Origin: a virus
Taxonomy: Duplodnaviria > Caudoviricetes
Virus record (IMG/VR): IMGVR_UViG_2690315653_000003
Location: 12,181-76,180 of that record
Reading direction: 5' to 3' (one strand)
DNA length: 64,000 bases
The notes under the pieces were generated by a model. The model made no database searches. It was not told the origin of the DNA and saw only the letters and a list, made by a program, of their open reading frames with translations. A program made the position numbers and the translations under genes. Position 1 is the first letter of the stretch; the number at the start of each line of letters is the position of its first letter. Shown one piece after another: positions 44,298-64,000 of this stretch.

Positions 44298-44308
44298 TGG
44301 CTATAGAT

Positions 44309-44350
44309 AAAAAAGGCCGATAGCAGGAATAAATCCGCTACCGGCCTTTT
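44309..44350. terminator. bidirectional intrinsic terminator
   Basis: AAAAAAGGCCG-A-TAGC...GCTA-C-CGGCCTTTT; T-tract follows the stem on both strands. Confidence 0.75.
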
Positions 44351-44352
44351 GA

Positions 44353-44703: not shown

Positions 44704-44705
44704 AT

Positions 44706-45092: not shown

Positions 45093-45093
45093 A

Positions 45094-45474: not shown

Positions 45475-45484
45475 CTCTATCCGT

Positions 45485-46456
45485 TTATTTGAGGTTTATT
45501 ACTTTGGCTTCCACCTCCCTATAAAGCTCCTCATTATCTTCAAGGAGTTTTCGCAGCGAATCTTCTCCCTGGCCCAACTGCGATCCTGCATAAGAATACC
45601 AGCTTCCGGATTTTTGGATGATATCGGCCTCGACAGCCAGGGCTATCACTTCTCTTATCCGGCTGATACCTTTTCCCCATTCCAGGTAAACCAAAGCTTC
45701 CTTAAAGGGAGCTGCCATTTTGTTTTTTATAATCTTTACTTTGATTTTATTTCCCCCGCCATCCTTATCCATCTGCGATCTTCTCATATCGATCCTAACA
45801 GATGAATAGAATTTAAGCGCTTCCCCTCCAGATCCAGTCTCCGGTGACCCATATAGTACGCCAACTTTTATACGTATCTGATTTATGAAAATGATAAGAG
45901 TGCCTGTTTTCTCTGCTATCGGAACAAGCATCCTGAGCGCCTGTGACATCATCCATGCCTGTCTGCCAATATTACTGTCGCCAACTTCTCCTTCCAGTTC
46001 TTTTTTAGGAACTAGGGCAGACACAGAATCGACAACTATTACTCCCAGTCGGCCAGATTCAGTTAAAGTTTTAACAATATTTAATGCCTGCTCCCCATAA
46101 TCGGGCTGACTAATAAATAAGGTATTAATATCCACGCCCAGGCTTTTTGCATAATTTGTATCCAGTGCGTGTTCCATATCTATATAGGCAGCAGATAGCC
46201 CCATACTTTGGGCGCAGGCAACAGTTTGCAGACACACCGTTGTCTTGCCAGCACTTTCCGGTGCTAATATTTCGACAATTCTTCCCCGGGGTAAACCATT
46301 AATGCCTATTGCCTGATCAATTAATAAACTGCCGGTACTGACAACCGGAACAATAGCTCCTTTTTCATTGGCAGTAATAATGGTGCCTTTGCCATATGTT
46401 TTATTAATCCTTAACATCACTTCCTGCAGCGCAGGGCCTTTCTCTTCAGAAATCAT
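45485..46456 (-). CDS. recA: RecA recombinase
   Basis: 'STGSL..D.A.G..GLPRGRIVEI.APESAGKTT', 'IDMEHALD', 'SQPDYGEQAL', 'VVDSV.ALVP..E', 'IFINQIR', 'GGEALKFYSSVR', 'KNK.A.PF'. Confidence 0.97.
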   Translation of the reverse strand: MISEEKGPALQEVMLRINKTYGKGTIITANEKGAIVPVVSTGSLLIDQAIGINGLPRGRIVEILAPESAGKTTVCLQTVACAQSMGLSAAYIDMEHALDTNYAKSLGVDINTLFISQPDYGEQALNIVKTLTESGRLGVIVVDSVSALVPKKELEGEVGDSNIGRQAWMMSQALRMLVPIAEKTGTLIIFINQIRIKVGVLYGSPETGSGGEALKFYSSVRIDMRRSQMDKDGGGNKIKVKIIKNKMAAPFKEALVYLEWGKGISRIREVIALAVEADIIQKSGSWYSYAGSQLGQGEDSLRKLLEDNEELYREVEAKVINLK

Positions 46457-46563
46457 TTTACTGGGTTAAGTTTGGGTCTTACCGGAAGTGCGCCGGCACT
46501 TAAAAAAGGGGATCTATATTATTGGATTACAAAATGGGATCAGTAAAGGGGAATATGCTGTGA

Positions 46564-46983
46564 TTATTTATCCAGATAATATGTATGATTTTTTTCGATA
46601 AATTCCATTATTTCCAATAGCACTATACTGGTTAATGGCTCGCTTTCTAACTGATTTTCAAATTTCCGATAGGAGTTTATGATGGTAGTATGTTCTTTGC
46701 CGGTATATCCTGCCAGCTTCAGAAGGGAATAGCCTGCCTTTACCATGATAAAGTATATCAATCCACGCCTGAAAATAAATTGAGATCTGCGTGATTCTGT
46801 AAAGACTTGCTCCCAGCTCCAGTCAGCGGCATCCAATATCATATTTATAACAATGGGCATTTCAATCTGAATCGGTAGCTGGCATGCTGACTCCCACCTG
46901 CTGCATACAGTGATCTTGAGATTTTTCCCTGTCTTAGTGGTAAAATCCTTTTTGTATCCGGCTATAAGATCATACTCTTTCAT
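46564..46983 (-). CDS. DnaA domain IV-like HTH DNA-binding protein
   Basis: 'SRR.....R.......GYSL..LA...GKEHTTIINS' matches the DnaA C-terminal pattern (GxDHTTV). Confidence 0.65.
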   Translation of the reverse strand: MKEYDLIAGYKKDFTTKTGKNLKITVCSRWESACQLPIQIEMPIVINMILDAADWSWEQVFTESRRSQFIFRRGLIYFIMVKAGYSLLKLAGYTGKEHTTIINSYRKFENQLESEPLTSIVLLEIMEFIEKNHTYYLDK

Positions 46984-47353
46984 TGTGATGAGCTATCGGG
47001 TTACTTTCAAGGATTTGAAATGCTGCTAACATACCTTCTTCCTCCGCCAGTATTCTGTCTCCATATTTTTTCTCATGGACAGAGACTACATCAGAGGTTA
47101 CTTTGTATTGCCAGATACCATCAGCCTCCCAGAGGACACATATCCGTATTTGTATTTCATCAAAAAAATCGTAGAGAAATCTTCCTGGGCTGTTAAATAA
47201 CAATGCTCTGATAGATCGTTCAATATCTTTTATTGAAAAATCTATACTCGGGATAGTTGATATCTGCGATTTTTCTTCATACCATTTGAGCATCCTATTA
47301 TAGGCACCAGGACAATTTTCTATTATATAGTTCACTTTTGCTGCGTCCATCAC
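46970..47353 (-). CDS. hypothetical protein
   Basis: 127 aa; overlaps neighbours in the operon. Confidence 0.6.
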   Translation of the reverse strand: MMDAAKVNYIIENCPGAYNRMLKWYEEKSQISTIPSIDFSIKDIERSIRALLFNSPGRFLYDFFDEIQIRICVLWEADGIWQYKVTSDVVSVHEKKYGDRILAEEEGMLAAFQILESNPIAHHNERV

Positions 47354-47913
47354 TGTTTATTTAATTTTTTACGGATTGACTCAATATTTAGTGTTTCTCG
47401 CTTTATATCTGGAATAGACCAACATTCGTCCGCAAGTACGTCATCAACTATTTCTTCCATCGTTGCGATAAAAGCGGGAACTTTAAATATTACCATTAGC
47501 TGCAATGACATGTTAACAACATTGGATCCATCCGGTGATTTTTCATAAGCAGGAAGAAGAGGGACATATTCCGGGCTGAACTTAGAATACTCTCCTTTTA
47601 TAAATCGCCGGTATACCCTTTCGAAACTGGTTGGAAATTTATAAACAAGGACAACAAATCCGCCGGCATAATCATAGTCGGCCAGGATTCCAGTATTGTC
47701 TTTATATTCTTTATCTACAAATTCCTGAAAGCTTTCAAATTCAGGTGGCATAAAAAGCAGGTATACAGGATATTTACAAGGAGCATCCTTTCCGGTTTCT
47801 TTCAGGAAACCGTTAATGAATCCGTACTTACTCTTTACATCTTCTACATTAATACTCAACCCCGGCACCAGAAACAACGTTGTGTTTGTTGATTTCCCCA
47901 CTATCATCAGCAT
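47350..47913 (-). CDS. conserved phage hypothetical protein
   Basis: 187 aa; 'TLFLVP', 'YLLF.P', 'F.KGEYSKFS..Y'. Confidence 0.65.
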   Translation of the reverse strand: MLMIVGKSTNTTLFLVPGLSINVEDVKSKYGFINGFLKETGKDAPCKYPVYLLFMPPEFESFQEFVDKEYKDNTGILADYDYAGGFVVLVYKFPTSFERVYRRFIKGEYSKFSPEYVPLLPAYEKSPDGSNVVNMSLQLMVIFKVPAFIATMEEIVDDVLADECWSIPDIKRETLNIESIRKKLNKQ

Positions 47914-48955
47914 AAATTTTTATGGTACAATCACCTTTGTTTTCAAAATTTCGCATAGATATATCCCAGATTTCTGAGTCTCTATGCCATTTAAGGGCTG
48001 AAATGGCTTCGTTGACACCCATATACCATTTGTTTCCATCGGCAAATCCATCTCTGGCATTAATCATGTTTCCTTTTCCGATTCTGAAAATAAGAGGAGC
48101 AATTTGGGCTTTAGAATGAGCGACAATAAACCGCATGGGTATGATGCGATAATTTCCATATCCATTTTCTTTTGCCCACTGGCGAATGGCCATGTAATAC
48201 AGAAATGCCTGTATGTAGTATCTGAATTTGCGATAGGAGAAGTTAAATAGCTCAACATCGAAAGTGACCTTCAGGTCAAATATTTCAATAATTTTCAAGT
48301 CATGATCTACGGAGACCATATCCAATTTGGACTTCATTTTTATTCCCAGATATTCATAGAGTACTACCAGCTGATAGTGAATATTATATCTTTCGTTAGA
48401 CTTACGACATACGATATTTGACGTTTTCCAATGTTTCTGAAGCTGCGCTATACAATTGTCTGCATATTTCAGGTCGGTAGGTCCTACCAGATATTTGTCA
48501 GAATTGGCCAGCATTTCTTTATAGTAACGTTCCTGTTCACTACCCTCAAACTCCATAAGAACTGTTTCATACGACGTTTTCTTGAGTTTTTCTCTAATAC
48601 CCTTTGAATTGAACGCGACTGCATTGAAGGCATCGGCTAATAATTCAGTAAAATCCCTCGTAACAACCCCTTCCGGTGATAGAGCAGCAATGGTATAATT
48701 GTACAATTTTTCTATTACCTCACCCATTTGTCCCTTAGGCTTATTATTTGTTGCCTCTTTAAATAATTCATGATAAACATCCGGCGTCCAAAGTTTAGTT
48801 TCTACCAATGTTCCAAATGTCATATCATAGGTTTGCTCCTCCACTTTTCTTATTCTCAGCTCATGTTTTTCATAGTATTTCCACCGGTCTTCTATAAAAT
48901 CTTTCAGTGAACTGTACGATAATCTGTTTATCGCCCTATACTCTCTTTCTGTCAT
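47849..48955 (-). CDS. PD-(D/E)xK exonuclease (RecE/exonuclease VIII-like)
   Basis: Start moved to MTEREY; 'LSYSSLKDF', 'FGT.V', 'KSKLD', 'IFDLK', 'YYIQA..Y'. Confidence 0.8.
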   Translation of the reverse strand: MTEREYRAINRLSYSSLKDFIEDRWKYYEKHELRIRKVEEQTYDMTFGTLVETKLWTPDVYHELFKEATNNKPKGQMGEVIEKLYNYTIAALSPEGVVTRDFTELLADAFNAVAFNSKGIREKLKKTSYETVLMEFEGSEQERYYKEMLANSDKYLVGPTDLKYADNCIAQLQKHWKTSNIVCRKSNERYNIHYQLVVLYEYLGIKMKSKLDMVSVDHDLKIIEIFDLKVTFDVELFNFSYRKFRYYIQAFLYYMAIRQWAKENGYGNYRIIPMRFIVAHSKAQIAPLIFRIGKGNMINARDGFADGNKWYMGVNEAISALKWHRDSEIWDISMRNFENKGDCTIKIYADDSGEINKHNVVSGAGVEY

Positions 48956-48977
48956 CACTATTAGTTTTATCAGATGA

Positions 48978-49265
48978 TCAATTATATACCACAGTGGATA
49001 TTGTATTGGGGAAAACCTCCATAAGTTCTTCTTCATCAAGAATGTCGGGCCAGCTATTTTCCGCCCTCGTTCTGTGTTTTACATGCTTCCAGAACACGCC
49101 GGTATAGTAAAATATGTCGGCCTTTTCCTCAGTTTGCCTCCCCTCAATCTCCTTCCAGTTTCCTTTTGAAATTATAGATAGTCCCATCTGCGGAACAGGT
49201 TTGCAGGTCATTATTCCATATCTGATCATATCAGGGAGGTCTGCGAGTCTTAGAATGTTTCTCAT
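48978..49265 (-). CDS. hypothetical protein
   Basis: 95 aa, ATGA-coupled to the resolvase gene. Confidence 0.55.
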   Translation of the reverse strand: MRNILRLADLPDMIRYGIMTCKPVPQMGLSIISKGNWKEIEGRQTEEKADIFYYTGVFWKHVKHRTRAENSWPDILDEEELMEVFPNTISTVVYN

Positions 49266-49753
49266 GTTTCAAAAAATTTATTTCTTATGCAAAAAGCCAT
49301 CAGCCGGCACCAATCATCAAACATCATGGAAACAATGTGATGCTCCGGTGCTCGTCCGTCCAGCTTGTGAAATAAAAAAGTCATCCTACTATGAATTGGA
49401 TCATCACCAGGGAAATTTTTAATAAGCTGTTCCTTTATATTTTTGAATATTTCTTCCGGCTTAGGTCTCGACTTTCGATACCCGGTTTTGAGTGAAGCAT
49501 TAAAAGGAATGCCGCTTAAATCAATACCGGAATTATCGAGCAGTCGGGACGCTTGCCTGGAAGTTTTACAATAATTAAAGGCAAATAAATCCCTGAGTTG
49601 TTTTGCAACCCATCTTTCGTAAGTATTTCCTTTCTGTTTACTGTTAATACGCTGCTTCCTTGGATATGCAGCATCATCTACGAGGGTAGATTTTTTCGGG
49701 GTTTTCAATGGATAGGGGGGATTAACTAAATAAAAGTAGGATAATGATTTCAT
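49262..49753 (-). CDS. Holliday junction resolvase (Hjc-like PD-(D/E)xK)
   Basis: 'NSKQKGNTYER.VA..L', 'GIDL', '.SLK'. Confidence 0.7.
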   Translation of the reverse strand: MKSLSYFYLVNPPYPLKTPKKSTLVDDAAYPRKQRINSKQKGNTYERWVAKQLRDLFAFNYCKTSRQASRLLDNSGIDLSGIPFNASLKTGYRKSRPKPEEIFKNIKEQLIKNFPGDDPIHSRMTFLFHKLDGRAPEHHIVSMMFDDWCRLMAFCIRNKFFET

Positions 49754-49760
49754 TATTTTA

Positions 49761-50396
49761 CTACTCTATAACCTGGGAGATTAAAACGTTTTCTATTACA
49801 TCGGTCGTAAACTTTTCAATGTATTCCTTACGCTCTTCCATTGTGGAGAAATAAGGGACTTTCAAATGAACAAAGGACTCATATTCAGGGTTTTTTGTAA
49901 AGTGAAGGTTTATGGTTTGACCTTTGTATAGTTTTCTGAATTTAGCATACAACGTTTTAAACTCTTTCTGTTTCTCAAATTTATTGCTGATTACAAGCGT
50001 AAAATGTTTGGATATGTGATCTGGTAACAGTTCAGTGAACTCCATATAAAAATGATAGAATTCTTCAGTAACAGTGAGCATTGCAAGGATATTAAACTCG
50101 CTATCCATGATGATGCCTTTGCCGACATAATAAACTCTGTTTCTAATTGGAATTTTAATGATTTCAGATCCGTCCTGAAAAATCTGAATGACAATATCAG
50201 TATCAAATAATCTCTTGTAGCCATTTGGGCCGCTAGGAAGCGTTAAGTATCCCAGTGATGTAAAACATAGAATAAAGGGTATTCTATTGCCCGCAGAAGC
50301 AATGAATTTGCATGAATTTGAAATTGTCTGATCTGGAACCAAACTGATAGTTCTTTCACCTATCCGAATTGTTGATAGAAAATTTTGGTTCACCAT
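49761..50396 (-). CDS. hypothetical protein directly downstream of the E1 gene
   Basis: 211 aa; 'YYVGKGIIMD..FNIL'; 11 nt after the ThiF gene stop. Confidence 0.6.
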   Translation of the reverse strand: MVNQNFLSTIRIGERTISLVPDQTISNSCKFIASAGNRIPFILCFTSLGYLTLPSGPNGYKRLFDTDIVIQIFQDGSEIIKIPIRNRVYYVGKGIIMDSEFNILAMLTVTEEFYHFYMEFTELLPDHISKHFTLVISNKFEKQKEFKTLYAKFRKLYKGQTINLHFTKNPEYESFVHLKVPYFSTMEERKEYIEKFTTDVIENVLISQVIE

Positions 50397-50407
50397 GACT
50401 TTAATAT

Positions 50408-51154
50408 TTAATATTCTATGTCATACTTATCAAGTGGAATAAGGAATTCGTAACTAAAAGGGACGTTACGAATTATCTTACCTTTTTTTACATTGGACAA
50501 CCAGTTCGTGATATAAAATATCATGTGTGCAGCGATTCCAGCTGCGGTAGGTGTTGTTTGAGTGTAGGTACATGAAGGCGTATCCGATTCATCAGGTTTT
50601 TCCAGACAATTATTGTAATATTTCTCCATTAGATCTGGCCTATCACCTGGTACGTTGTAGATCCACATTTGTTCTGCAAGCAATCTTCCGTCTTGAAAGA
50701 AGAACTCGCTGCGTTCGTGCTCAGGCGTTCTGTTCACATATGCAGCCCACTTTTCGAATGCGAGTCTTCTTACCTCTATTTTATCCGGGCCACAAAGCAC
50801 AATTTTTGATGTTTCACTGGTACGGGTATACTCTCCATGTGTCTCTATTTCGCAATCCGGGCTAAAGGAACTGATTGTATTTTTTATGGCCTCTACCTTT
50901 TTTTGCCCTACATTAGTGTCAAACATAACCTGGCCACCATTATGGTCCTCGAAAATATCCTTATCGTATACATGAAGACGTACTCCTGTTCTGGAGAGTA
51001 GTAATGACAACCAGGACCCAATCCCCCCCTGACCTATTATGACGATATCCCTTTTGTAGATAGCGTCAAACCAAAAGGCACCTTTAGACCTTCCATATAT
51101 GGCAGGGGTGATCATTTTTTCACTTTCTGTTAATACATTATTTTCATTTGTCAT
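50408..51154 (-). CDS. E1/ThiF-family adenylating enzyme
   Basis: 'IIGQGGIGSW' (GxGGxG), 'YDKD.FE.HN', 'K..A', 'GPD....R', 'DGRL', single Cys in 'TPSCTY'. Confidence 0.9.
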   Translation of the reverse strand: MTNENNVLTESEKMITPAIYGRSKGAFWFDAIYKRDIVIIGQGGIGSWLSLLLSRTGVRLHVYDKDIFEDHNGGQVMFDTNVGQKKVEAIKNTISSFSPDCEIETHGEYTRTSETSKIVLCGPDKIEVRRLAFEKWAAYVNRTPEHERSEFFFQDGRLLAEQMWIYNVPGDRPDLMEKYYNNCLEKPDESDTPSCTYTQTTPTAAGIAAHMIFYITNWLSNVKKGKIIRNVPFSYEFLIPLDKYDIEY

Positions 51155-52077
51155 TTTTTGTCGTTTTGTCGATAAGTGGTAAATAGGTGACTATTTTCTT
51201 TTTTTCCTTTGGATATGTCCTTAGCCGCTTTGGAAACAACCTTTTTAGGTGCCCGTGTTTTTGATTTTGGCTTTTTCTCAGCGATATTTCCTTCTGGGAA
51301 TAATTGAAGTTTTTTTAATGCTTTGGCCTTACGAGGTTTTGGTGCCGTGGGTAATGATGGTAAAACAGGTTCCCTAGTTAGTTCAAAACAACGAGACCTG
51401 AAATCCTCGTCGATTTGACTTTCGTGGTGAACAATATTACATTCATATATACCTATAATCTCCTCTTCTGAATTGGTGTCGCTCATCACTTTAGTTGAAT
51501 GCACTCCATTATTACCCAGGTAATTTAAAGTTGAATTTGATGTTGTTTTTTGGGTTGCAAAAACGCTCATCTTACCAATAATGTCATAGCTGTTATTTAC
51601 AATAATTGATAAATAGTAATTATGATTTGGCGCATTTATATGTATATCCTTTTTGTCAGTATCGGAAAAGAATACCGGCATATTGTTATGGGAGTGAATC
51701 ATGCCTTGTCTACAATATCTGTTTAAAGGATTATCATCCAGGTACGTAGCAAGTTTTCCAGTGAAAACTGGTGCAGTCATCACTGAGGAGCCCATATCCA
51801 TTAGAAGTACGTCTTCTAACACGCACTTGAAGTTTTTTTCTCCGAAATCTCCTATTGTCCTATAGAATAGAACTGCGCTCCATTCCAGATCCTGTATCTC
51901 AGAACATAGAAATCGGACTTTATCCATAAAATGACTAGGCACATATACCGGAATTGATTGGGAGAAGAGAATTTCGTTGTAACGCGTAACTATTGAATCT
52001 GTCAGAAAGTTGGGTGTTAATAAATCTGGTGAATTCTGGGTCGGGATATTTCCGAATTTCATTGCTTGCGTTTTCAT
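51151..52077 (-). CDS. JAB/JAMM metallo-isopeptidase (start uncertain)
   Basis: 'EWSAVLFY' Glu plus exact HxH-x7-S-x2-D (HSHNNMPVFFSDTD); alternative starts are GTG 51942 or ATG 51927; Lys-rich C-terminal tail. Confidence 0.85.
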   Translation of the reverse strand: MKTQAMKFGNIPTQNSPDLLTPNFLTDSIVTRYNEILFSQSIPVYVPSHFMDKVRFLCSEIQDLEWSAVLFYRTIGDFGEKNFKCVLEDVLLMDMGSSVMTAPVFTGKLATYLDDNPLNRYCRQGMIHSHNNMPVFFSDTDKKDIHINAPNHNYYLSIIVNNSYDIIGKMSVFATQKTTSNSTLNYLGNNGVHSTKVMSDTNSEEEIIGIYECNIVHHESQIDEDFRSRCFELTREPVLPSLPTAPKPRKAKALKKLQLFPEGNIAEKKPKSKTRAPKKVVSKAAKDISKGKKENSHLFTTYRQNDKK

Positions 52078-53107
52078 AATCAACAATTTTGAAATTTATT
52101 GGTTTGTTTTGAAAATAAAGTATTGGTTCGGTCATCTTATATTGGGTCGTATCGATTTCAAACGGAGAAATACGGATTAGTTTACCCTGATGGTTTTTTA
52201 CCGCGTAACATTGCAAAGGAAGATTCATACGCTCCATTACAGTAACTATTTCTTTTTGTCCACGATCAGTTAGCTCAACATCGAATTTGTCTTCAATGAT
52301 TTTTACAGAGAACATATCTCTGATCACTTGTGGTCGAAGGGAACTCAAATGGAAGAGGAAATGATTGCAAATTATTGGAATTTGTTCTGCCGGGAAATCT
52401 TCTGCAGGACCAGAGGTTGTGTGCTCAGAAACTCCAATTTCAGAAATGTAGCGATATGGAACGCCTGAAATAGATTCCCATTTGACCAGCTCTTTTATAT
52501 GCAAGCAAAATAGCTCCATTCCATCCTCATAAAATCTGTGCTTAAGCTGAAGAATAACATCTAAAATAGATCCCGTTCCCAAACAAAAATGTCCATCGTA
52601 ATTCTCTCGGTAATCTACTCTCGGAAGGTGAGAATGTGCATAGTTATACTTGAGTTCATCTACGGTAACTGTGGAACGGATACCATTTAAAAAGGAATCA
52701 TCGACACTGAACAAACATCCTTGGAAGTTAATATTAAAGCTTACGAATAGATCTCGTATTATATGAGAAGCATCATGCTCATTTTTTATTTCAACTTCTG
52801 GAAAACGTATGACTACTTCATAAAATAGGTATTTATCTACCACCTCCAGGAGGTGTTCAATATTGGTGTCATCCGGATTATTTTCATCGCCGTCGGGTCC
52901 TAAAGAGATACCTAAGTAATTTAATGCAAGATCAATAGCCTGTGACTCATTTATATTGACTATTTCATTATTAAGCTCGCCAAAATGAGTGTTTAATATT
53001 TTCTTTATTTGATTAAGTATTCCGCTTTCACCAGTAATCCTTCGCCCTTCTTTGGCCTTTAGATAAACTGCCCGGCGAAGCATCGCAGCTTTTGAAATTT
53101 CAGCCAT
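51935..53107 (-). CDS. prokaryotic E2-like (UBC-fold) protein
   Basis: 'HSHLP...GHFCLGTG' parallels the E2 HPN...G.ICL catalytic-Cys motif; sits between the Ubl and JAB genes. Confidence 0.6.
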   Translation of the reverse strand: MAEISKAAMLRRAVYLKAKEGRRITGESGILNQIKKILNTHFGELNNEIVNINESQAIDLALNYLGISLGPDGDENNPDDTNIEHLLEVVDKYLFYEVVIRFPEVEIKNEHDASHIIRDLFVSFNINFQGCLFSVDDSFLNGIRSTVTVDELKYNYAHSHLPRVDYRENYDGHFCLGTGSILDVILQLKHRFYEDGMELFCLHIKELVKWESISGVPYRYISEIGVSEHTTSGPAEDFPAEQIPIICNHFLFHLSSLRPQVIRDMFSVKIIEDKFDVELTDRGQKEIVTVMERMNLPLQCYAVKNHQGKLIRISPFEIDTTQYKMTEPILYFQNKPINFKIVDYENASNEIRKYPDPEFTRFINTQLSDRFNSYALQRNSLLPINSGICA

Positions 53108-53122
53108 TTCAATTGGTTTTTG

Positions 53123-53157
53123 AAAAAGGAGAAGTGAATAATATCTCTTCTCCTTTT
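53123..53157 (-). terminator. intrinsic terminator between the Ubl and E2-like genes
   Basis: AAAAGGAGAAG...CTTCTCCTTTT inverted repeat; TTTTT follows the stem on the - strand. Confidence 0.7.
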
Positions 53158-53170
53158 ATTTACTGGAATT

Positions 53171-53413
53171 TTATTTCCTTCCTAATTCGGATTTCTGTTG
53201 AACGATATAGACAACGATATTTCCGGTAGGCAGTATCGTTGATGGGTCAACAAGAGGCTTAGAGTGACCTCTCAGCACGATACTCATTCCTTCATACCTG
53301 ACTCCTCGTTCTTCAAAGACCTGCTGGACTTCTTTAAGGGTCTCTCCTTCGAATTCGTCGATTTCAATTTCATCAACTCCCCTGGTGTTAAATACTGTCA
53401 ATGATCTGGTCAT
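53171..53413 (-). CDS. ubiquitin-like (beta-grasp) protein
   Basis: 80 aa; beta-beta-alpha pattern 'RSLTVFNT..EIEI...ETLKEVQQVFEERGV.Y.GM', 'L.....LP.GN.VVY', C-terminus SELGRK; first gene of the E2-JAB-E1 cluster. Confidence 0.7.
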   Translation of the reverse strand: MTRSLTVFNTRGVDEIEIDEFEGETLKEVQQVFEERGVRYEGMSIVLRGHSKPLVDPSTILPTGNIVVYIVQQKSELGRK

Positions 53414-53464
53414 TTCTTTTTGATTTTAAATTTTGAATAATCGTTTTATTTTGTACAGTACCGC

Positions 53465-54193
53465 CTATGCGGTACAGATTTCATTGAACCATTTTATACC
53501 CTCAAATTCCGGATGATTATCTTTTATTATTATATCAACCTTATTTAGAAAACGGTTGCTTTGCCATGATTCTGTCTCTGGAAATAATTCGGGATCGTCC
53601 AGTTCAAATGAGATATTGTTGAATGGTGCAACCAGTTGTGTATAGGATTTCGCGTTTTCTCCCATAAATACAATTGGTAAAGAAGAAGGGTAATAGTTAA
53701 TGATTTCAATAAAGAAATACTTCATGAATGGTCGCCAGAGGTCATAATGAGATCCCGGTTTATTTTGTTCTGCTGTTAAAGCTGAATTTAGCAATAGGAT
53801 GCCCTGACGAGCGAGGAAGCCTAAATCAGGTTCATCTATCATGTCCACATTAAAGCCTGAGGAGTATTCCTGTTCAATAGCTCTGTAAAGCCGGTGAAGA
53901 CCTCTGGGGATAGTCTGGGTATTTGAAACACTTAATGATAGCCCATCGGCCATACTTTTACCATTTACAACGCTACTATATGGTCCATCAATGAAAAAGA
54001 CTGCCTTTAGGTTACTGTAGGCAGTTTCACTAAAACATCTAAATGTTTGTTCCTTGAATGGACATACCGTGCGGCCTCTTTTCGAGAGCCCTTTTAAAGT
54101 CCTGATAATAATATCAAACTCTTCGGTTTCAATAAACCCCTTAAATAGTGGTGCCCAAGTCGAGAATTTATCTTTTATGAGATCGTAGTTCAT
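53465..54193 (-). CDS. uracil-DNA glycosylase family 1-like protein with altered catalytic motifs
   Basis: 'P.....FR.F', 'ADGLS.S', 'LARQGILLLNSALT', 'PGSH..LW.PF'; GQDPY appears as IDGPY and HPS is absent. Confidence 0.8.
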   Translation of the reverse strand: MNYDLIKDKFSTWAPLFKGFIETEEFDIIIRTLKGLSKRGRTVCPFKEQTFRCFSETAYSNLKAVFFIDGPYSSVVNGKSMADGLSLSVSNTQTIPRGLHRLYRAIEQEYSSGFNVDMIDEPDLGFLARQGILLLNSALTAEQNKPGSHYDLWRPFMKYFFIEIINYYPSSLPIVFMGENAKSYTQLVAPFNNISFELDDPELFPETESWQSNRFLNKVDIIIKDNHPEFEGIKWFNEICTA

Positions 54194-54196
54194 AAA

Positions 54197-54406
54197 TTAC
54201 CTGATTACGGTTTTATTAATTGTGTAAGTACGGGTTGGTTCAAGCCAGTTCAGGTCATAGAAATCAACTTCATAATTTGCCCTTTCCGCAAGCGGAATAT
54301 TCTGTCTTATAACGTTTGTTGGAAAGTGATTCCAGATATACCTCTGCGCCCTACCTAATCTTACATAATCACCAGTAATCCTGTTCCTTATAGCATAGAT
54401 CTTCAT
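54197..54406 (-). CDS. small hypothetical protein
   Basis: 69 aa 'MKIYAIRNRITGDY'; ATGA-coupled to primase. Confidence 0.6.
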   Translation of the reverse strand: MKIYAIRNRITGDYVRLGRAQRYIWNHFPTNVIRQNIPLAERANYEVDFYDLNWLEPTRTYTINKTVIR

Positions 54407-55425
54407 AGTGTTTCTATATTTTTAATTATTATTCGCTCTACTGTTCCTGGTCCGTAGTGCCTTGCAATGTCAGCAAGATCCTTTCGAATGGGTGGTGTTA
54501 TGTAGGATGAGGGAATTATAAATGGTTTAAACTTATTATTCAGGCTGGTATAGTATTCTGTTGCCTTTTTTCCTGCTTCATCTGGGTCGTTGCATATAAG
54601 TATCCATGGAAAGGTTAGCAGGTATTTCATGTCAGCCTCGCCTATAACATTATTACCTTCATACTGAATACCATAGCAATTATCGTAGAACTTTGAAGCA
54701 ACTTTAAAGTCTTTGACTGCTTTTATCTGAAAAGCGCCTTTTGACGGGTTAAGAGATTTGATTCCATAGAGCTGATCATGGGGGACGTTACATCTCCATT
54801 TATCTTTTTTATTTTCGGCGAGAGGTCTATATATTTTCCATTTCCCACCTTCAAAAAGAAACCCATATACTAATTCATTCGAACCAATTTCTATTTTTAT
54901 TTTATCTATATACAATGCTCCTACTCGATATACCACTGGTTCTTTCTTTAGGTCACTTTTATCCAGGTGATACATACCCCAAAATTTGAAATCTTCGCTG
55001 CAAAATGGTTTAGGGGTTACCTGGATAAGTTTAAAGGATTGGTAGTCATCGGTATACCCAACTTGATCAGTTATTGTTCGCCTGATGGGTTTTGAAGGAG
55101 CTTTTCCATTGGTAATACCCAGATTTAGGTCATTGTCAATTTGATGCAGAATATCATTGAAATTGCTTCCAGGATAAATGTTCCTGAGAAAGTCAATGAT
55201 TTTACCTCGAAATCCTCCAGGACCGAAATCTGTAAAGTATAATCTTCCAAATTTTGTTTTAATAATGGAAGCTGACGGGTTATCGTCTTTATGTCTAAGA
55301 GGTGACCTGAATGGTTTGCCCAACTTAAAATCATGCCCTAAGTAGTGCCGGAAGATATCATATTCACTTACGTGCTCGAATATTGTGTCTAAAGTCAGTT
55401 CTGTCCTCTGGCGACCCTGTATCAT
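54403..55425 (-). CDS. DNA primase (crAss-type, TOPRIM)
   Basis: 'FRSPLR..D.NPS', 'FTDFG', 'KIYRP', 'K..KD', TOPRIM 'NDPDEAG', 'KDLAD'. Confidence 0.85.
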   Translation of the reverse strand: MIQGRQRTELTLDTIFEHVSEYDIFRHYLGHDFKLGKPFRSPLRHKDDNPSASIIKTKFGRLYFTDFGPGGFRGKIIDFLRNIYPGSNFNDILHQIDNDLNLGITNGKAPSKPIRRTITDQVGYTDDYQSFKLIQVTPKPFCSEDFKFWGMYHLDKSDLKKEPVVYRVGALYIDKIKIEIGSNELVYGFLFEGGKWKIYRPLAENKKDKWRCNVPHDQLYGIKSLNPSKGAFQIKAVKDFKVASKFYDNCYGIQYEGNNVIGEADMKYLLTFPWILICNDPDEAGKKATEYYTSLNNKFKPFIIPSSYITPPIRKDLADIARHYGPGTVERIIIKNIETL

Positions 55426-55457
55426 TTGTATAGATTTTATCCTTGGTTAAAGGATAG

Positions 55458-55493
55458 GAATGCCCTGCTTGAATAAGTACAAGCAGGGCATTC
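55458..55493. terminator. perfect 14-bp hairpin between the SSB and primase genes
   Basis: GAATGCCCTGCTTG-aataagta-CAAGCAGGGCATTC; T-run on the + side, weak tail on the - side. Confidence 0.6.
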
Positions 55494-55503
55494 GATTTTT
55501 AAA

Positions 55504-56421
55504 TCAATAATCACTATCCATTAAGTCGAGGTCGTCATCCATATCTGGAAAAGCTCCCATTGGATCATCCTCAACATTATCGCCATCCGGAGTTGGAATG
55601 TTATCATCCGTAATGATGGGACTGTCAGATAAAAGTTTATTTTGTGCTGGATCATAGTCGTGGGCCAATTCCAATACTCTGTTAGCCCCGAAAAAATCCT
55701 TACATCCATGTTCGGGGTGGAGGATCTGACTGAGAAAGAAGGCTAACTTTCTATCTTTAATTTCAGTAATAGGAATAGTACTTTTATAGTATCCAAAGTT
55801 GCTTACTGATAAGAACTCCCTGTTGTAAATAGTCTGAAATTCCTTAAATTCATCGCCCACTTTAGCGAGCCTTACAGCATACAGCCCGACAATGTTAGTG
55901 GAAAAGCTTTGACCACGGATTTCATTAATTTCACTAACATCGCCCTTCATTAATTTTTTCCAGTCAAGTACCCGGGAAACTTCCGGGCTTTTCTCCCTAA
56001 GTTCCCCTGTATGGGCTCTTAAGAATTTATACAACTCTACTTCACCTGATCTGGCAACCCATGGATTATTTTCTTTAAACCAGGATTGGAAATTATCAGT
56101 GTTTTCAACCCAGAAAGTGCTGGTGCCTTTTTTATCGATATAGCGTTTTTTTCCTTTCTCTGAGGTAGCTATCTGATCTTTGAGGCGAATCTGTATTTTA
56201 TGTTTTTTGCCTGTGGATAGATCCTTCACCCAGATTTCGAGTTTTAATGATTTTACACCATTATCATTGATAACATATTCCGGATCTTTTTCACTTTCCC
56301 ATCCCAGAATTTCTTTGATCTCTTTTTTTGTTGGATTTACGATTAGTGGTTCCAGCACACCAAGTCCTACTCTGAATCCGGAACTTGCACGGGGCTCTCT
56401 TGTTGGTCCTACAATACTCAT
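55504..56421 (-). CDS. putative single-stranded DNA-binding protein
   Basis: 305 aa; highly acidic C-tail (DDPMGAFPDMDDDLDLMDSDY); lies between AAA ATPase and primase as in crAss-like phages. Confidence 0.6.
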   Translation of the reverse strand: MSIVGPTREPRASSGFRVGLGVLEPLIVNPTKKEIKEILGWESEKDPEYVINDNGVKSLKLEIWVKDLSTGKKHKIQIRLKDQIATSEKGKKRYIDKKGTSTFWVENTDNFQSWFKENNPWVARSGEVELYKFLRAHTGELREKSPEVSRVLDWKKLMKGDVSEINEIRGQSFSTNIVGLYAVRLAKVGDEFKEFQTIYNREFLSVSNFGYYKSTIPITEIKDRKLAFFLSQILHPEHGCKDFFGANRVLELAHDYDPAQNKLLSDSPIITDDNIPTPDGDNVEDDPMGAFPDMDDDLDLMDSDY

Positions 56422-56453
56422 AGTATTATAATTTTAATTGTAATGAATGATGA

Positions 56454-57404
56454 TTAAAATATCAGGTCGGGATATATTTCCTGCCAGTAACGTGTGGGAT
56501 ATACCTTTGGGTCAGTCTGAAAGTCAGCAATTTTTATTATTTTATTTCGTAAATGAACGGGTCTTGCTCCCAGGTCAGTTTCTGTGCGTTTATTAAAATC
56601 GAGGAAGCATCCTTCATTATTTCGATTAAAAATAGCAACAGCTGACATGAGCCGAGTGATTGTATAAGGTGCAATTCCATCCAGGGCAACGTCGAGTGGA
56701 GTTAGGTCGTCTGTATCTTTACCGATAACATCTTTTTTATTCTTTACATGTGCAACATATATGATAAAAGGGGCTGCGTAACTTTCGATGTATTCTAGGA
56801 TTCCAAAGAAATTGGGACGAGTATAGTTAACTCCGCTGTATTTATCAACTTTCCGAATATCCATTTTGGGAGGATCAGGTCTAACTTCCAAATTATAAGC
56901 ATGCAGAGTTGCTGAATAATTCATCTCCTGCAGCTGCGTTAAATTATCTAATGCGAAGATTGGCCAACGCATTTTTGCGATATGTTCTTTTAGAGCATTA
57001 AATATTTTTACCTTTTCTTCAGGTACATGTGCAAGATCCAGCCTTTGTTGAAGTTTACGATACTCGTCCATACAATTGGTATGATATAGATCATTGACAA
57101 CTTCTGCTAATCCCATTGGTATATAGACTCCATTTTTTAGCTTCTTATACGGATCCTTACTTTTCTTCACAGAAAGATGGACTTTGTTTGTACACTCGAA
57201 ATATTTTGTCTCAGTGAGAGTGTCACCAATCATTATTTTTTTTGTGTTCACCATAGTCATAGTCTTTCCCATGAGTGTATGTCCCATCATTATCATTTTT
57301 GCCGGGGACTGTATCGTGAATTCCTGCCTATCAATGATGTTATTATCTTCATCCATAGGCAGCCTTCTTATTCTGTTCTCTTCTCGCTGTGTTTGTGCTG
57401 ACAT
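56454..57404 (-). CDS. AAA/P-loop ATPase (Sak4/AAA_24-like)
   Basis: Walker A GHTLMGKT, Walker B FALDNLT, 'IYVAHVK', 'GARP.HL'. Confidence 0.7.
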   Translation of the reverse strand: MSAQTQREENRIRRLPMDEDNNIIDRQEFTIQSPAKMIMMGHTLMGKTMTMVNTKKIMIGDTLTETKYFECTNKVHLSVKKSKDPYKKLKNGVYIPMGLAEVVNDLYHTNCMDEYRKLQQRLDLAHVPEEKVKIFNALKEHIAKMRWPIFALDNLTQLQEMNYSATLHAYNLEVRPDPPKMDIRKVDKYSGVNYTRPNFFGILEYIESYAAPFIIYVAHVKNKKDVIGKDTDDLTPLDVALDGIAPYTITRLMSAVAIFNRNNEGCFLDFNKRTETDLGARPVHLRNKIIKIADFQTDPKVYPTRYWQEIYPDLIF

Positions 57405-57898: not shown

Positions 57899-59008
57899 TT
57901 AATGTTTAAATATTGTATAGTTAATTACAGATTCATAATCTGCGCTTGTCATTGTATTTGACGGTGGAAGACCTTTGAAAATGCCTGTCTGTGGAAGGAA
58001 TGCTAGACCTATTCTAATCCCTTCAGTATCATAAGAGCTTTTGAGAATATTAAACAGTCTATACATTTTGGCACCATCAGCGCTGCGCAGTTTATTCAAA
58101 TCATATCCGTTAGGGTCGAGCACTTTATACCTCCATGGATCAAAAATACTCATTACCAAATCTGCATCTTCCGTAAGGTCACCTGTATTTTTGAAATCCT
58201 CTAATCTGGGTTCTACATCTCCATTTTTCAACCTGAATGGATTAGCAATATCCCTGTTGAATTGAGACAGGATAACAGCTGAATGTCCAAACAAATCCCT
58301 CGTATAATTAGAGGTATCATCAGAAAAGCTATCTATAGTTTCCTTTAGATTCTTCCCATTCTCACCTTTTAGCTTACCAACGTGGTCGAAAATATGCAAC
58401 CAGGTAATTGAAGGATCACTCGGCTTATAAACTCGTTCAAACTGATTTAGATTCCTCAGATCTCCATTTTCCTCTGCAATCCTTTGAATCTCCTTTCTAA
58501 TGCCAGTAGGATTTTGACGGCCATCAATAATCCTTATATATTTGAACATATTGTCAAAGTACTCTTTGCAGCCTCTGACGATCTCCTGTTCCTGTTCGTT
58601 AAGCCTTTGTTCTTTACGAACCCAACCGAGCAGCCTTTTCATAGGGATGATCCTACCGGTATCCTTGAAGATTTTGTGTGATACCCATTTTGCTACTTTA
58701 AAAACTTTTTTCCTTTCCATACTCCAATAAATAATCCGGAGCTTTTCCGGTTTACCGTTTCGGAGCATGTAGTCATATGGATTCAAAACAAAAAGATCGT
58801 CCACTAAAGATGTCTTAGCTGAGCCAGTATAGCCTCCTAAAACATAAAGCATACTTTTCCTCAAAGAAAGATACTCGTCCAGTTTTTCAATCCCAATTGG
58901 AATTCCCTCATGTATCCCATCTAATCCCTGATCTACATAGATCATAAAGGAGTCAAATAATCCAATGCCGGCGTCTTCTTCGGACTCTCCTGTATTTATA
59001 TTTTGCAT
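57899..59008 (-). CDS. DnaB-like replicative helicase
   Basis: Walker A GYTGSAKT, 'SME', Walker B 'IFDH', 'LSQFNR', 'P.LEDFK.TG...EDAD.V', 'LKS'. Confidence 0.88.
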   Translation of the reverse strand: MQNINTGESEEDAGIGLFDSFMIYVDQGLDGIHEGIPIGIEKLDEYLSLRKSMLYVLGGYTGSAKTSLVDDLFVLNPYDYMLRNGKPEKLRIIYWSMERKKVFKVAKWVSHKIFKDTGRIIPMKRLLGWVRKEQRLNEQEQEIVRGCKEYFDNMFKYIRIIDGRQNPTGIRKEIQRIAEENGDLRNLNQFERVYKPSDPSITWLHIFDHVGKLKGENGKNLKETIDSFSDDTSNYTRDLFGHSAVILSQFNRDIANPFRLKNGDVEPRLEDFKNTGDLTEDADLVMSIFDPWRYKVLDPNGYDLNKLRSADGAKMYRLFNILKSSYDTEGIRIGLAFLPQTGIFKGLPPSNTMTSADYESVINYTIFKH

Positions 59009-59206: not shown

Positions 59207-60013
59207 TCATATACTGAATGTGAATGGATCTGATTGAATATTGTTATTATTTAATCTTTTATTTCGGCCAGCTTCTATAAAAGGGGTGAAGCTTCTTATA
59301 TAAAGATACCTTGGACAGTTAGGGATATAGTGGAGTTCACTTCTGCCGGATTGTAAGGATAATTGTTTAGCATTTTCCATCTGACAGATTGTGGCCCAAT
59401 AGATATCATCAGTACTATACTCACCTTCGTTGATTATGTTCCAATAATATTTTCTGGATTGTTCTTTGTCAAGGTTTTTCTTTTGATGACCGGCAAATTG
59501 TCTACCGGAAATTTCAAACATATCTGTGGTCGGATAGGCATTTTTCCACCAATATTCGAAGGGATCATCGTGTTTTGAGTATTGAGGATCTGGTATTTCC
59601 TCTCCAAACCGAACCTGCTTTAATACCTTTTTTCCCTTAATGGTAATTTTATAATCTGATGTCAGGTAGCTTTTTCTGATTAGTGTTTGACACCAATCTG
59701 CAATTTTTCCGGTGACCGGCAACAAATTATTCTGATAAGCTAACTCCAAAACATATAGCAGGTTAAAATCTAAATTTTCTTTCAATAAAATTCTGCGCCC
59801 CTCTGAGCGGATGTTGAAAAGATAGGCTTCCGTATCTTCAATATCTAAGTGCAGATTGTTGCTTTCTGATTTTCCGTCACTCATATTGGTAGTCCCTTTA
59901 ACCTGTGAATTTAATTCCAGATACATCTGGTGTTCGTATTCCATCTCATGATGTAACTCATCGTCACTGCACTGCTGCAAACATTCGTCGTGATATAGAT
60001 CTTCGCTTCCCAT
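59207..60013 (-). CDS. putative replication initiator/replisome organiser
   Basis: wHTH-like 'LIRKSYL...ITIKGK' plus 'FEYWW..YP' and 'YIPN..RYL' typical of phage initiator C-domains; upstream of DnaB. Confidence 0.55.
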   Translation of the reverse strand: MGSEDLYHDECLQQCSDDELHHEMEYEHQMYLELNSQVKGTTNMSDGKSESNNLHLDIEDTEAYLFNIRSEGRRILLKENLDFNLLYVLELAYQNNLLPVTGKIADWCQTLIRKSYLTSDYKITIKGKKVLKQVRFGEEIPDPQYSKHDDPFEYWWKNAYPTTDMFEISGRQFAGHQKKNLDKEQSRKYYWNIINEGEYSTDDIYWATICQMENAKQLSLQSGRSELHYIPNCPRYLYIRSFTPFIEAGRNKRLNNNNIQSDPFTFSI

Positions 60014-62086: not shown

Positions 62087-64000
62087 CTATAGATCAACCT
62101 GTGGTGGAATGATTTTTTCATTGTATTGACTAGCCAACATACGGAGCCATTCGTTGGCAAATTGAGTAAGGTATACTGATACACCACTAAAAGCCTTTAC
62201 AATTTTATTATCCTTGAATACAATTGCAAATTCTTTTCTGGCAGGATGATGTATTAGTTTACATACATAAACTTTTGGAGACCTGTTTTTAATTCGTCCT
62301 ACAGTTGAATCGTGAACTACGTAGAATTCCATTTCACATGCCGGCACCCAAATACTGCCATTTGAAAATCCTTCACTGAACTTATAAAGTGTTCCTATTC
62401 CCAGATGAGATTCAATATTACTACTGATGCACATGATATTAATGTGAAAAGAATTCTCAGACGGTATAACAATCATTGATTTATCTTCCAGCGTGCCTAA
62501 AAACTGTTTGATGATATTTATACTATCAGCAGTAAGTGAAGGGAGAAGTAATTTATTCGCTTCTTTGGCGGGTATTGGGCTACCATCTATAAATGCAGAT
62601 CTTCTGGCAAACGGAACAACGACATTTTTAAGATCTTCCCTACGCCTTTCCTCCTCATTGAAGGCATAAATCTCTGTTGTAGAGTCATATTCATGACTAT
62701 TCTGTTCCTTGGCGTGCTGTAGGGATAGTGTTTTTGCTATTCTGTCACTATAAAGATGCTTGAGCTTATACATGTCCTTATCGATACCCAATTCCTTTTT
62801 TACATATTTCTTCCACCGCCGCCCAAATTGGTCTGGTCTGATGGAGTAAAATTGGGGTTTCATGAATTTGCTAAATATAAATACTTCACCGGTCTTTTCT
62901 GGTACTCCGCATTTAGTTGCATATTCCTGGCAATCCGATAATATTTCTTTCCAGATATGGAGTGTATGGATGGGAATCGGTTTTATTACCTCCCGGTGGA
63001 TCTTTCCTTTCAATACCCATACGGTAAACTGCCTTTTCTTTATATCCACGTTGCCTACCTTTACTAAGGCCAGCTCGGTCTCTCTACTGCCAGATGCGTA
63101 GAAAACTATCACATATCGCCAGAAATGATAGTAATTGGCCTTTAAATATTCATCAATGGTGATAATCTCCTCTTCTTCCAGAACCCGTGGTAAGGGCTCA
63201 TCTTCCGGAAGAATCGGAATTTCCAGGATAAAATTTGATTTTACGACTCTGGCTAGTGCCAGTTCCTTAAACAATGAAAGCAGAAAAGACCTATACTTAT
63301 TACGTGACTTTGGTGAAAATTTGGGATTGATCTTGGCGATAACCTCAAAGCTTAAGGTAATATGTTGTGGAGTTATTCTGCTGATAGGTGTTTGAAGATA
63401 TTCTAAGAGGAATGCTGCACGATTCATCGCCCGGATGGCGCCTCGTACACTGCTCAGGTGTCCTGGAACTCCCTTTATTTTGCGATATGCTTTCCAAAGC
63501 GCATCAATAAAAGGCAGATCTGGGGTCAGGATATGAATAGTTATTTTATCGGAGCTTATTTCCTCCTTCAACTTCTGGGCTTTTTCGGTTTCTAGTGCGA
63601 CTTTATTTGCTACAGCGAGGAGCTGTGGTGAAATATCGATCTGAGTTTTAGTGACAACATCATGAAATGGATCATGTGCCTGTTCTTTTGGTTGTTGGTT
63701 ATAATATTCATTTGGTTTTAGGGTTTGTTTGGTGATAGGGTTATATCCACTTTCGAGCTTTTCTTTAATATTTTTTAGTGCCTTTCTAACCAGCTTTCTT
63801 CGCTCATCGAGTGTTTTTGCCCCGGCAAAGCCTTTCTTAAAATTGCACCGTTTTCCTCTTGGGAGTGTACTTTTAAAACTGGGATCAAAGAACCAATATT
63901 CAATGTACCATTCGGTGTCTAAAAATGCGTCTGGCAGATCCCAATCGAAGGGATTGACGTATGGCTTGGTGTAGCTACATCCATTTGGAAGTTCAATCAT
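62087..64000 (-). CDS. tyrosine recombinase/integrase (Bacteroidota type) with C-terminal extension
   Basis: N-terminal 'WYIEY...DP....R...K.G.....ERR.......L..GYNP'; catalytic R (GSRETEL), K (KGK), YKLKH, H (NSHE), Y (TEIYA). Confidence 0.9.
   Translation of the reverse strand: MIELPNGCSYTKPYVNPFDWDLPDAFLDTEWYIEYWFFDPSFKSTLPRGKRCNFKKGFAGAKTLDERRKLVRKALKNIKEKLESGYNPITKQTLKPNEYYNQQPKEQAHDPFHDVVTKTQIDISPQLLAVANKVALETEKAQKLKEEISSDKITIHILTPDLPFIDALWKAYRKIKGVPGHLSSVRGAIRAMNRAAFLLEYLQTPISRITPQHITLSFEVIAKINPKFSPKSRNKYRSFLLSLFKELALARVVKSNFILEIPILPEDEPLPRVLEEEEIITIDEYLKANYYHFWRYVIVFYASGSRETELALVKVGNVDIKKRQFTVWVLKGKIHREVIKPIPIHTLHIWKEILSDCQEYATKCGVPEKTGEVFIFSKFMKPQFYSIRPDQFGRRWKKYVKKELGIDKDMYKLKHLYSDRIAKTLSLQHAKEQNSHEYDSTTEIYAFNEEERRREDLKNVVVPFARRSAFIDGSPIPAKEANKLLLPSLTADSINIIKQFLGTLEDKSMIVIPSENSFHINIMCISSNIESHLGIGTLYKFSEGFSNGSIWVPACEMEFYVVHDSTVGRIKNRSPKVYVCKLIHHPARKEFAIVFKDNKIVKAFSGVSVYLTQFANEWLRMLASQYNEKIIPPQVDL

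Follow-up and report, generated by a model that had tools for sequence, protein, structure and literature searches.

Evidence that a 127-kb crAss-like prophage occupies a tRNA-Gln gene in a Bacteroidota chromosome

The window examined in this study is a 64,000-nucleotide stretch of IMG/VR virus record IMGVR_UViG_2690315653_000003, whose last three bases are the start codon of a tyrosine integrase gene. This window very probably lies within a crAss-like prophage, in an extended sense of that term, which is 127,151 bp long when measured from the start of one attachment (att) repeat to the start of the other, and whose own integrase inserted it site-specifically into a tRNA-Gln(CTG) gene, in the 3′ part of that gene. 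The host DNA is a soil-type Bacteroidota chromosome. Specifically, the window corresponds to positions 3704251-3768250 of contig C8 (4,830,363 bp) in genome assembly G000, which totals 8.07 Mb in 8 contigs and is 99.99% complete. Features outside the window are numbered on the same scale, such that positions to its left are negative, and coordinates that begin with C8 refer to the host contig. The original prediction, that the integrase marks a prophage or a temperate lineage, is supported with regard to the integrated state by repeats derived from tRNA-Gln, by collinear flanks in a related genome (G014), and by crAss hallmark genes between the repeats.

The att sites and their chromosomal setting

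No tRNA gene is present in the window, and an att site had been predicted to lie probably just beyond position 64000. This expectation was borne out by inspection of the flanks, which contain both host genes and tRNA-derived repeats. An intact tRNA-Gln(CTG) gene resides at positions 64114-64185 on the minus strand, with its 3′ end directed toward the integrase gene and located 113 bp beyond the integrase start codon. A 42-bp att core (64114-64155; C8:3768364-3768405) spans the tRNA gene from its anticodon loop up to the 3′ end, and a perfect copy in direct orientation is found at the far end of the element (−63037..−62996; C8:3641213-3641254), 127,151 bp away. There is no third copy of the core within ±150 kb, and self-comparison of the element reveals no further long repeats.

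At the left repeat the G+C content falls from ~0.42 to ~0.36, and prophage genes reach to within 300 bp of this far copy. Its outer side carries a hairpin and a run of T nucleotides, the same arrangement that follows tRNA-Gln in related genomes. To the right of the tRNA gene are a chromosomal gene for a subtilisin-like peptidase and a resistance-nodulation-division (RND) efflux operon (names assigned by eye). An integrase gene that adjoins an att site, direct repeats formed from the 3′ part of a tRNA gene, and an intact tRNA gene at one end are together the arrangement by which prophages in tRNA genes are recognized. The phage-side arm between the integrase gene and the core (64001-64113), when read by eye, includes three TGGAGA-type motifs, two of which lie ~23 bp apart within a longer, T-rich direct repeat. 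A conserved section of the left arm (L007:2233-2330) also has one CTGGAG, and these motifs together are candidate arm-type sites.

The tRNA-Gln(CTG) gene adjoins the same peptidase gene in all 12 orthologous loci, the G000 locus counted. In G014, the closest relative genome, the peptidase is 97% identical in protein sequence, and the chromosomes are collinear on the left from C8:3600332 to 3638444, except for one small inverted block, and on the right from C8:3768333 onward, with 89-93% nucleotide identity on both sides. Between these collinear blocks, G014 carries 4.7 kb versus 129.9 kb in G000, and relative to G014 this alignment shows the 127 kb to be inserted DNA. The same tRNA-Gln gene in G014 is occupied by an element of 3.0 kb (C22:389937-392998) that is bounded by 44-bp direct repeats of the tRNA end. 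It encodes a 203-aa open reading frame (ORF) and a short-form integrase that is 43% identical to the G000 protein over amino acids 1-465, and it includes no crAss-like genes. In addition, ~95 bp of its left arm is homologous to the left end of the prophage. Because G014 has a related integrase and repeats at this location, the integrase family is seen, as judged from these alignments, to use this tRNA in two genomes. The 3.0-kb element represents a remnant or else a minimal integrative element.

One alternative is that a free (circular or plasmid-like) crAss-like phage sharing 42 bp with tRNA-Gln was joined to the chromosome during assembly. The whole stretch occurs in only one of 15 listed sequencing runs, which include no RNA run, and in the contig graph of that run, which is the probable source of the assembly, the 42-bp core forms a separate node with four neighbors. 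The depth of this node is 320, compared to 167 for the phage contig and 165-171 for host contigs, where depth is not equivalent to copy number, and the graph gives the same picture for attL plus attR as it does for attP plus attB. Also in keeping with an artefact is a report that the prototypic crAssphage is a phage-plasmid (PMC10983915; here and below, statements attributed to sources with PMC numbers concern excerpts of those papers). However, ordinary reads are longer than 42 bp, and an assembler is thus able to resolve the core. Moreover, a phage that shares the exact 3′ part of a tRNA beside its integrase gene would itself bear the signature of an integrating phage, and G014 displays a recombination product at the same site. 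An assembly artefact is considered very unlikely.

Plant metagenomes also include sequences from this locus. Three such runs cover only the tRNA/peptidase side, and one contig ends in the att core preceded by 30 letters that are identical to the G000 left flank. This contig end is compatible with an unoccupied tRNA-Gln site, although it is not proof of one.

crAss-like genes and their order

The assignment of the enclosed DNA to the crAss-like phages is upheld by homology of its terminase large subunit (TerL), portal protein, major capsid protein (MCP) and virion RNA polymerase (RNAP), and by a TerL phylogeny. TerL (695 aa; phrog_6681 at 7.5e-89) and the portal protein (865 aa; phrog_6547 at 1.4e-90) are encoded at −9549..−4864 on the plus strand. 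In tblastn searches of 50,697 phage records, TerL matches 150 records at E<=1e-5 and the portal protein matches 132 at E<=1e-10, almost all of which are named crAss-like or Crassvirales phages. These names include cr*_1 genomes, crAss001, PhiCrAssBcn, DAC15, Carjivirus communis, IAS virus, and Cellulophaga, Flavobacterium FpV-type and Azobacteroides phages. The best TerL match is Leptolyngbya phage Lbo-JY46 (42% identity), which is an unclassified member of Caudoviricetes. The MCP (825..2375, plus strand; phrog_11589) is matched more weakly, with distant matches to 5 phage records that include Azobacteroides ProJPt-Bp1 and cr50_1.

Additional genes fit the same assignment. A DNA polymerase is encoded at −57076..−55058 on the minus strand (phrog_1252 at 6.7e-120), and a virion structural protein of 1543 aa at 12709..17340 on the plus strand (phrog_37948, 2.8e-133). 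The virion RNAP homologue is an ORF of 5485 aa (22758..39215, plus strand) that receives no RNAP name from PHROGs. By tblastn, it matches the annotated RNAP subunits of crAss001-type phages with an E value of 1e-35 and Cellulophaga phi14:2 gp66 (g066) with 7e-16, values that speak to homology only. In this ORF, regions homologous to what are separate RNAP subunit genes in crAss001-type phages are joined to one homologous to phi14:2 gp66. TerL, portal, MCP, DNA polymerase and the 5485-aa ORF are all uninterrupted. A candidate duplication of tail genes (two pairs of 883-aa and 895-aa ORFs) was rejected, as there was no similarity at 1e-8.

The size and layout of the element are also those of crAss-like phages, which are recognized by genomes of ~100 kb or more, by two opposed blocks of genes (structural versus replication), and by a Bacteroidota host. 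The 127 kb of the prophage compares with 125,312 bp for Lbo-JY46. CheckV estimates for three relatives (86,339 bp at 75%, 66,082 at 57% and 53,543 at 46%) imply genomes of ~115 kb, and the prophage falls within ~10% of this value.

A maximum-likelihood TerL tree of 20 rows contains one split with support of 100/100; the tree is rooted at its midpoint with no outgroup, was built without Crevaviridae, and includes three Suoliviridae rows that are fragments of 205-237 aa. The prophage is on one side with four IMG/VR contigs, Lbo-JY46, the epsilon phage crAssE-Sib, Cellulophaga phi17:2 (Lightbulbvirus) and three contigs from metagenome-assembled genomes (MAGs). Steigviridae, Intestiviridae, Suoliviridae and FpV4 occupy the other side. 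By these comparisons the element is crAss-like in the extended sense. It appears to group with the epsilon crAss-like phages, phi17:2 and Lbo-JY46, apart from the sampled families in the ICTV virus taxonomy, and its membership in ICTV Crassvirales is left open. Among species genomes, no TerL relatives are found by single-sequence search and four by profile search, all of which are MAG contigs.

We also considered whether the integrase might belong to a separate small element at tRNA-Gln, with crAss-like DNA merely beside or inside it. Such an element exists in G014, where a 43%-identical integrase with a homologous left arm of ~95 bp uses the same target and is accompanied by no crAss-like genes. 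Likewise, short-form relatives of the integrase reside on 15 viral contigs, of which 14 are 35-56 kb and one is 15 kb, and these are not crAss-sized.

Evidence to the contrary comes from viral contig G511 (86 kb, 75% complete by CheckV), whose TerL is 55% identical to that of the prophage and which has no match to the integrase family PF00589. On one strand, G511 carries in order the genes for DNA polymerase, a homologue of a 268-aa protein, helicase, a 305-aa protein, primase and a 242-aa protein. The DNA polymerases of G511 and G000 are 41-42% identical and the helicases 44-45%. In G000, all six genes are on the minus strand. The DNA polymerase gene lies within the element 6 kb from the far att copy, and the remaining five are 4-10 kb in from the copy beside the integrase. 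These include the 268-aa gene (59207..60013), a DnaB-like replicative helicase (57899..59008; phrog_19, phrog_15558) and DNA primase (54403..55425; phrog_12622). Joining the two att ends of the G000 element recreates the G511 gene order.

Because att joining restores this order, with the synteny split exactly at the att junction, the integrase gene and attP lie inside the phage chromosome. Furthermore, there are only two att copies and no internal boundary was found, and phage genes approach the far att copy to within 300 bp. That the integrase comes from a distinct element next door had been named in advance as a finding that would overturn the prophage interpretation, and this proposal does not withstand the comparison. 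For practical purposes, gene order rules out an origin in a neighboring element, and we regard this explanation as extremely improbable.

The att join would leave ~10 kb between the DNA polymerase gene and the 268-aa gene, compared to ~1 kb at the equivalent position in G511. This stretch contains a methyltransferase gene, genes for three paralogous proteins of ~300 aa (C8:3643381-3646142, near the far att copy), a macro-domain gene, a DUF6965 gene, attP and the integrase gene, and two ORFs of unknown function. The macro-domain gene, which is proximal to attL, has a homologue in L065, another viral contig of this lineage (40% identity). From the comparison with G511, it appears that a lytic-looking crAss-like backbone was made integrative by an island of ~10 kb between its polymerase and helicase genes.

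The remainder of the early/replication block (43617..57404, minus strand; ORF map and PHROGs) includes an exonuclease (47849-49039) and a UvsX-like recombinase (45485-46456), and ends with a PAPS-reductase-like gene (43617-44297; phrog_424, 3e-50). The original prediction placed the integrase gene at the head of this block and in the same orientation. Its orientation is confirmed by the minus-strand helicase, primase, exonuclease and UvsX-like genes. Its position at the head applies to the prophage and is a consequence of integration, since in the circular phage the gene would be located within the block.

The integrase, its active site and its relatives

The integrase ORF (62087..64000, minus strand) encodes 637 aa, with its ATG at 64000-63998. 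The open frame spans 638 codons, such that this ATG is the earliest possible start and no longer form can exist. The protein matches Pfam family PF00589 (Phage_integrase) over amino acids 276-449 with 32.4 bits (cut-off 27.1), and the PHROG integrase families phrog_1 (9.7e-16) and phrog_216. An AlphaFold2 model generated with a 15-sequence alignment has a mean pLDDT of 81.3. Foldseek searches of the Protein Data Bank (PDB) with this model return XerA, IntI4, lambda Int and Tn1549 Int as the best matches (E 3e-9 to 2e-7, probability 1.00), and the TM score to lambda Int, by target, is 0.57-0.68. A phmmer search of the PDB yielded nothing useful, and a profile search did align solved recombinases. 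The model and alignments indicate that the protein is a true tyrosine recombinase of lambda-Int/Xer fold, with N-terminal, core-binding and catalytic domains.

Catalytic residues within the catalytic domain (aa 276-449; 62654..63175, minus strand) were placed by aligning a profile of 15 family members to an archaeal XerC-like protein, IntI4 and XerD. R306 resides in a GxRxxE box, K331 in the β-hairpin, and H436 and Y445 in a GHxxxxTTxxY box. The HxxR box reads Y411-K-L-K414-H (amino acids 411-414 are at 62759-62770), where the three solved recombinases have LRH, such that K414 aligns with the conserved Arg (Arg-II) and Y411 with the His. The claim that all catalytic positions are recognizable is therefore correct in that six positions can be placed, but only four of these (R306, K331, H436 and Y445) carry the residues of the canonical R-K-H-x-x-R-H/W-Y active site.

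This departure is shared by the integrase family. Among 52 members (26 proteins and 26 contig loci), 51 have Lys at the Arg-II position and 47 have Tyr at the His position. Because the signature is family-wide, the YxxK box is, by alignment, a family trait and not the result of decay in this one copy. Family members are nevertheless flanked by perfect att duplications in two genomes (G000 and G014), which gives indirect evidence only of recombination activity. Tn1549 Int crystal constructs with R225K are among the Foldseek matches of the integrase.

A second unusual characteristic is an extra C-terminal domain (about aa 478-626; 62123..62569, minus strand), which is modeled with good confidence as a helix, a β-sheet and a long helix. 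Seven proteins of 626-655 aa (the G000 integrase plus P0002-P0007; 39-61% identity) share this C-terminal extension of ~170 aa and constitute a long form, and short forms of 355-476 aa, including that of G014, do not carry it. An ESM Atlas model of the integrase matches DUF6908 clusters with TM scores of 0.64-0.65, which is the sole fold match of the C-terminal domain. DUF6908 is undetected in this domain by Pfam sequence search, and a literature search for DUF6908 found no paper. When compared alone to 1.84 billion cluster representatives, the domain has two matches at E<=0.001, both of which are long-form integrases. It might be speculated from the model that the domain has a role in directionality or regulation.

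The long form was not found in 102 other genomes of the genus, five of which have short-form relatives. Single-sequence and profile scans of viral, genome and metagenome contigs likewise returned only short-form relatives, with matches that end by about amino acid 481. Named relatives of the integrase come from Chitinophaga and Chitinophagaceae. These distributions suggest a picture in which an integrase/attP cassette common in temperate Chitinophagaceae phages was captured by a crAss-like backbone.

A plausible mechanism can be outlined from these features. The circular phage would carry attP, whose 42-bp core matches tRNA-Gln from its anticodon loop to its 3′ end, adjoining the integrase gene within the early/replication block between the genes for DNA polymerase and for helicase and primase. 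Int would bind the core and the arm sites and recombine attP with the tRNA gene, with Y445 as the predicted nucleophile and with R306, K331, K414 and H436 expected to surround the scissile phosphate. The tRNA would be rebuilt at the integrase end, and a 42-nucleotide tRNA fragment would be left at the far end. We infer that Int made the present junction and that the prophage may still be able to excise.

Cargo, temperate habit and comparison to known phages

Between the early and structural blocks is a locus of ~22 kb (−34397..−12592; C8:3669853-3691658) that resembles a polysaccharide utilization locus. Its genes encode two pairs of extracytoplasmic function (ECF) sigma factors and FecR proteins, two AraC-type regulators, a SusC-like TonB-dependent transporter with STN and CarboxypepD_reg domains, a SusD-like protein, a GH2 glycosidase and an S9 hydrolase. 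The best paralogues of these genes elsewhere in G000 are 25-52% identical, and the G+C content of the locus is phage-like at 0.33-0.40. In three related viral contigs, the 8-10 kb lying upstream of TerL contain no genes of this type. Based on sequence composition and divergence, the locus looks like carried cargo rather than a recent host insertion. A 55-bp direct repeat with 91% identity is present at C8:3671527-3671581 and C8:3691691-3691745 (positions 30315-30369 and 50479-50533 of the element). Each copy is just downstream of a FecR-like gene, and the FecR-like proteins themselves are ~25% identical.

Several observations weigh against an integrase-driven, temperate crAss-like phage. Homologues of the gene that adjoins the far att copy, which looks Nudix-like by eye, are present in 14 of 30 other genomes, and in none of the 13 loci of close relatives that carry this left-flank gene is there a tRNA or the right-flank peptidase. 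Because there is no tRNA near the gene in these loci, synteny of the left flank must be young and is not kept at the genus level, and an empty-site test from this flank was set aside as uninformative, leaving G014 as the only informative genome. Moreover, the same left flank was not found beside a strictly empty tRNA-Gln site, as the G014 site holds its small element. The integrase has Lys at Arg-II and Tyr at His-II, and Arg-to-Lys changes usually weaken catalysis in other tyrosine recombinases. No repressor, antirepressor or excisionase is recognized among 12 end-proximal ORFs by Pfam and PHROGs, where small unassigned ORFs remain. A PF00589 integrase is absent from all five of the closest viral contigs, each of which is a fragment, and from the complete record of Lbo-JY46. 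Finally, a search for TerL relatives gave none in the other 102 genomes of the genus and a single partial match among 400 others of the family. Because TerL relatives are almost absent from these genomes, lysogeny looks rare in this lineage.

Some of these same observations bear on whether the prophage is defective or domesticated, that is, integrated as described, no longer able to excise or form virions, and kept for its SusC/SusD genes and sigma/anti-sigma pairs. Consistent with such a fate are the lack of a recognized excisionase or repressor, the 22 kb of host-like cargo, the noncanonical active site, and the example of G014, where elements at tRNA-Gln can evidently decay to a remnant of 3 kb. 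Arguing for an intact phage are the perfect state of both 42-bp repeats, the hallmark ORFs, all of which are intact even though one is 5485 aa in length, a size of 127 kb that is near both the ~115 kb implied by relatives and the 125,312 bp of Lbo-JY46, and the fact that the Lys/Tyr signature is found throughout the family. On balance, a defective prophage seems rather unlikely.

We use the word temperate on the strength of the integrated state and the intact genes. The most far-reaching interpretation holds that this would be a still-inducible, integrase-dependent temperate crAss-like phage in a culturable soil or rhizosphere Bacteroidota, with SusC/SusD genes as lysogenic-conversion cargo, a natural Lys at Arg-II, and a fused DUF6908-like domain that may be a directionality or regulatory module. 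This combination is put forward tentatively, as a possibility that falls somewhat short of an even expectation.

Lysogeny of this kind would be unusual among crAss-like phages. Excerpts of a 2023 review state that these phages seem strictly lytic and that the evidence is not in favor of true lysogeny (PMC10136315), and the persistence mechanisms discussed elsewhere are phase variation, carrier states (PMC8375218) and, for the prototype, a phage-plasmid (PMC10983915). The earlier generalization was that characterized crAss-like phages are mostly non-integrating and without integrases. For a subset of crAss-like genomes, the presence of integrases has been ‘noted’ (PMC9980608, citing Yutin 2021). 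In metagenomic surveys, the label ‘crAss-like prophages’ is assigned solely through clustering, as described in the excerpts (PMC11923282, PMC12454387). A literature search for crAss-like or Crassvirales prophages, with supplementary annotations outside its scope, found no report with att sites, and the Guerin 2018 preprint makes no mention of integrase or lysogeny.

The nearest parallel is provided by the epsilon crAss-like phages (crAssE-Sib), which share the same side of the TerL tree, a large genome, a suspected temperate habit and Bacteroidota hosts, although their TerL is only ~30% identical to that of the prophage. Excerpts of the epsilon paper describe a repressor, antirepressors and two incomplete Parabacteroides prophage sequences, and report that an integrase was sought and not found, with integration left undecided (PMC11054128). 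The prophage described here differs in having an integrase, both att sites and a tRNA target, with no repressor recognized. Lbo-JY46 (PP438436.1), the closest isolated phage (TerL 42%, portal 31% and MCP 25% identical; genome 125 kb), is a cyanobacterial phage with a free linear record, no PF00589 match, and no tRNA integration known from that record.

Cellulophaga phi17:2 and phi4:1 (Lightbulbvirus) and ICTV Crassvirales (crAss001, Carjivirus communis, Suoliviridae) have homologous TerL, portal and virion RNAP proteins and two divergent gene blocks, and the ICTV families sampled are across the 100/100 TerL split from the prophage. In the excerpts available these phages are called lytic, except that Carjivirus is called a phage-plasmid, and none is described there with an integrase and att sites (PMC10136315, PMC10983915). 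The review excerpts also list, with a citation of Yutin et al. 2018, a crAss-like genome that comes from the assembly of a Chitinophaga isolate (PMC10136315). That genome shares with the prophage a link to Chitinophaga, given that the named relatives of the prophage integrase are also from Chitinophaga or Chitinophagaceae.

The integration of phages into tRNA genes by tyrosine integrases is textbook knowledge. As in other tRNA-integrating temperate phages with lambda-type integrases, the integrase gene is beside attP, the core is identical to a tRNA's 3′ part, integration regenerates the tRNA, and the domain plan of Int is the same. Unlike these systems, the prophage Int has YxxK in place of HxxR and a C-terminal domain of 150 aa, and the phage is crAss-like and 127 kb in length. 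The mechanism is conventional, and it is the union with a crAss-like backbone that is unusual. Novelty is limited by the textbook nature of tRNA integration, by the integrases noted in some crAss-like genomes, and by the Chitinophaga crAss-like genome that, according to the review excerpts, has been listed since 2018. Further interest resides in the unusual catalytic residues, in the C-terminal domain fused to the integrase, and in the SusC/SusD cargo, which, if the phage moves it, would be an unusual case of a phage-borne nutrient-uptake locus.

If the prophage is still inducible, it would represent true lysogeny in a group for which this capacity has been denied in review. Because the integrase, attL, attR and the tRNA target are defined and the host is cultivable, crAss-like lysogeny becomes directly testable, and the prophage could supply an integration module for the genetics of Chitinophagaceae.

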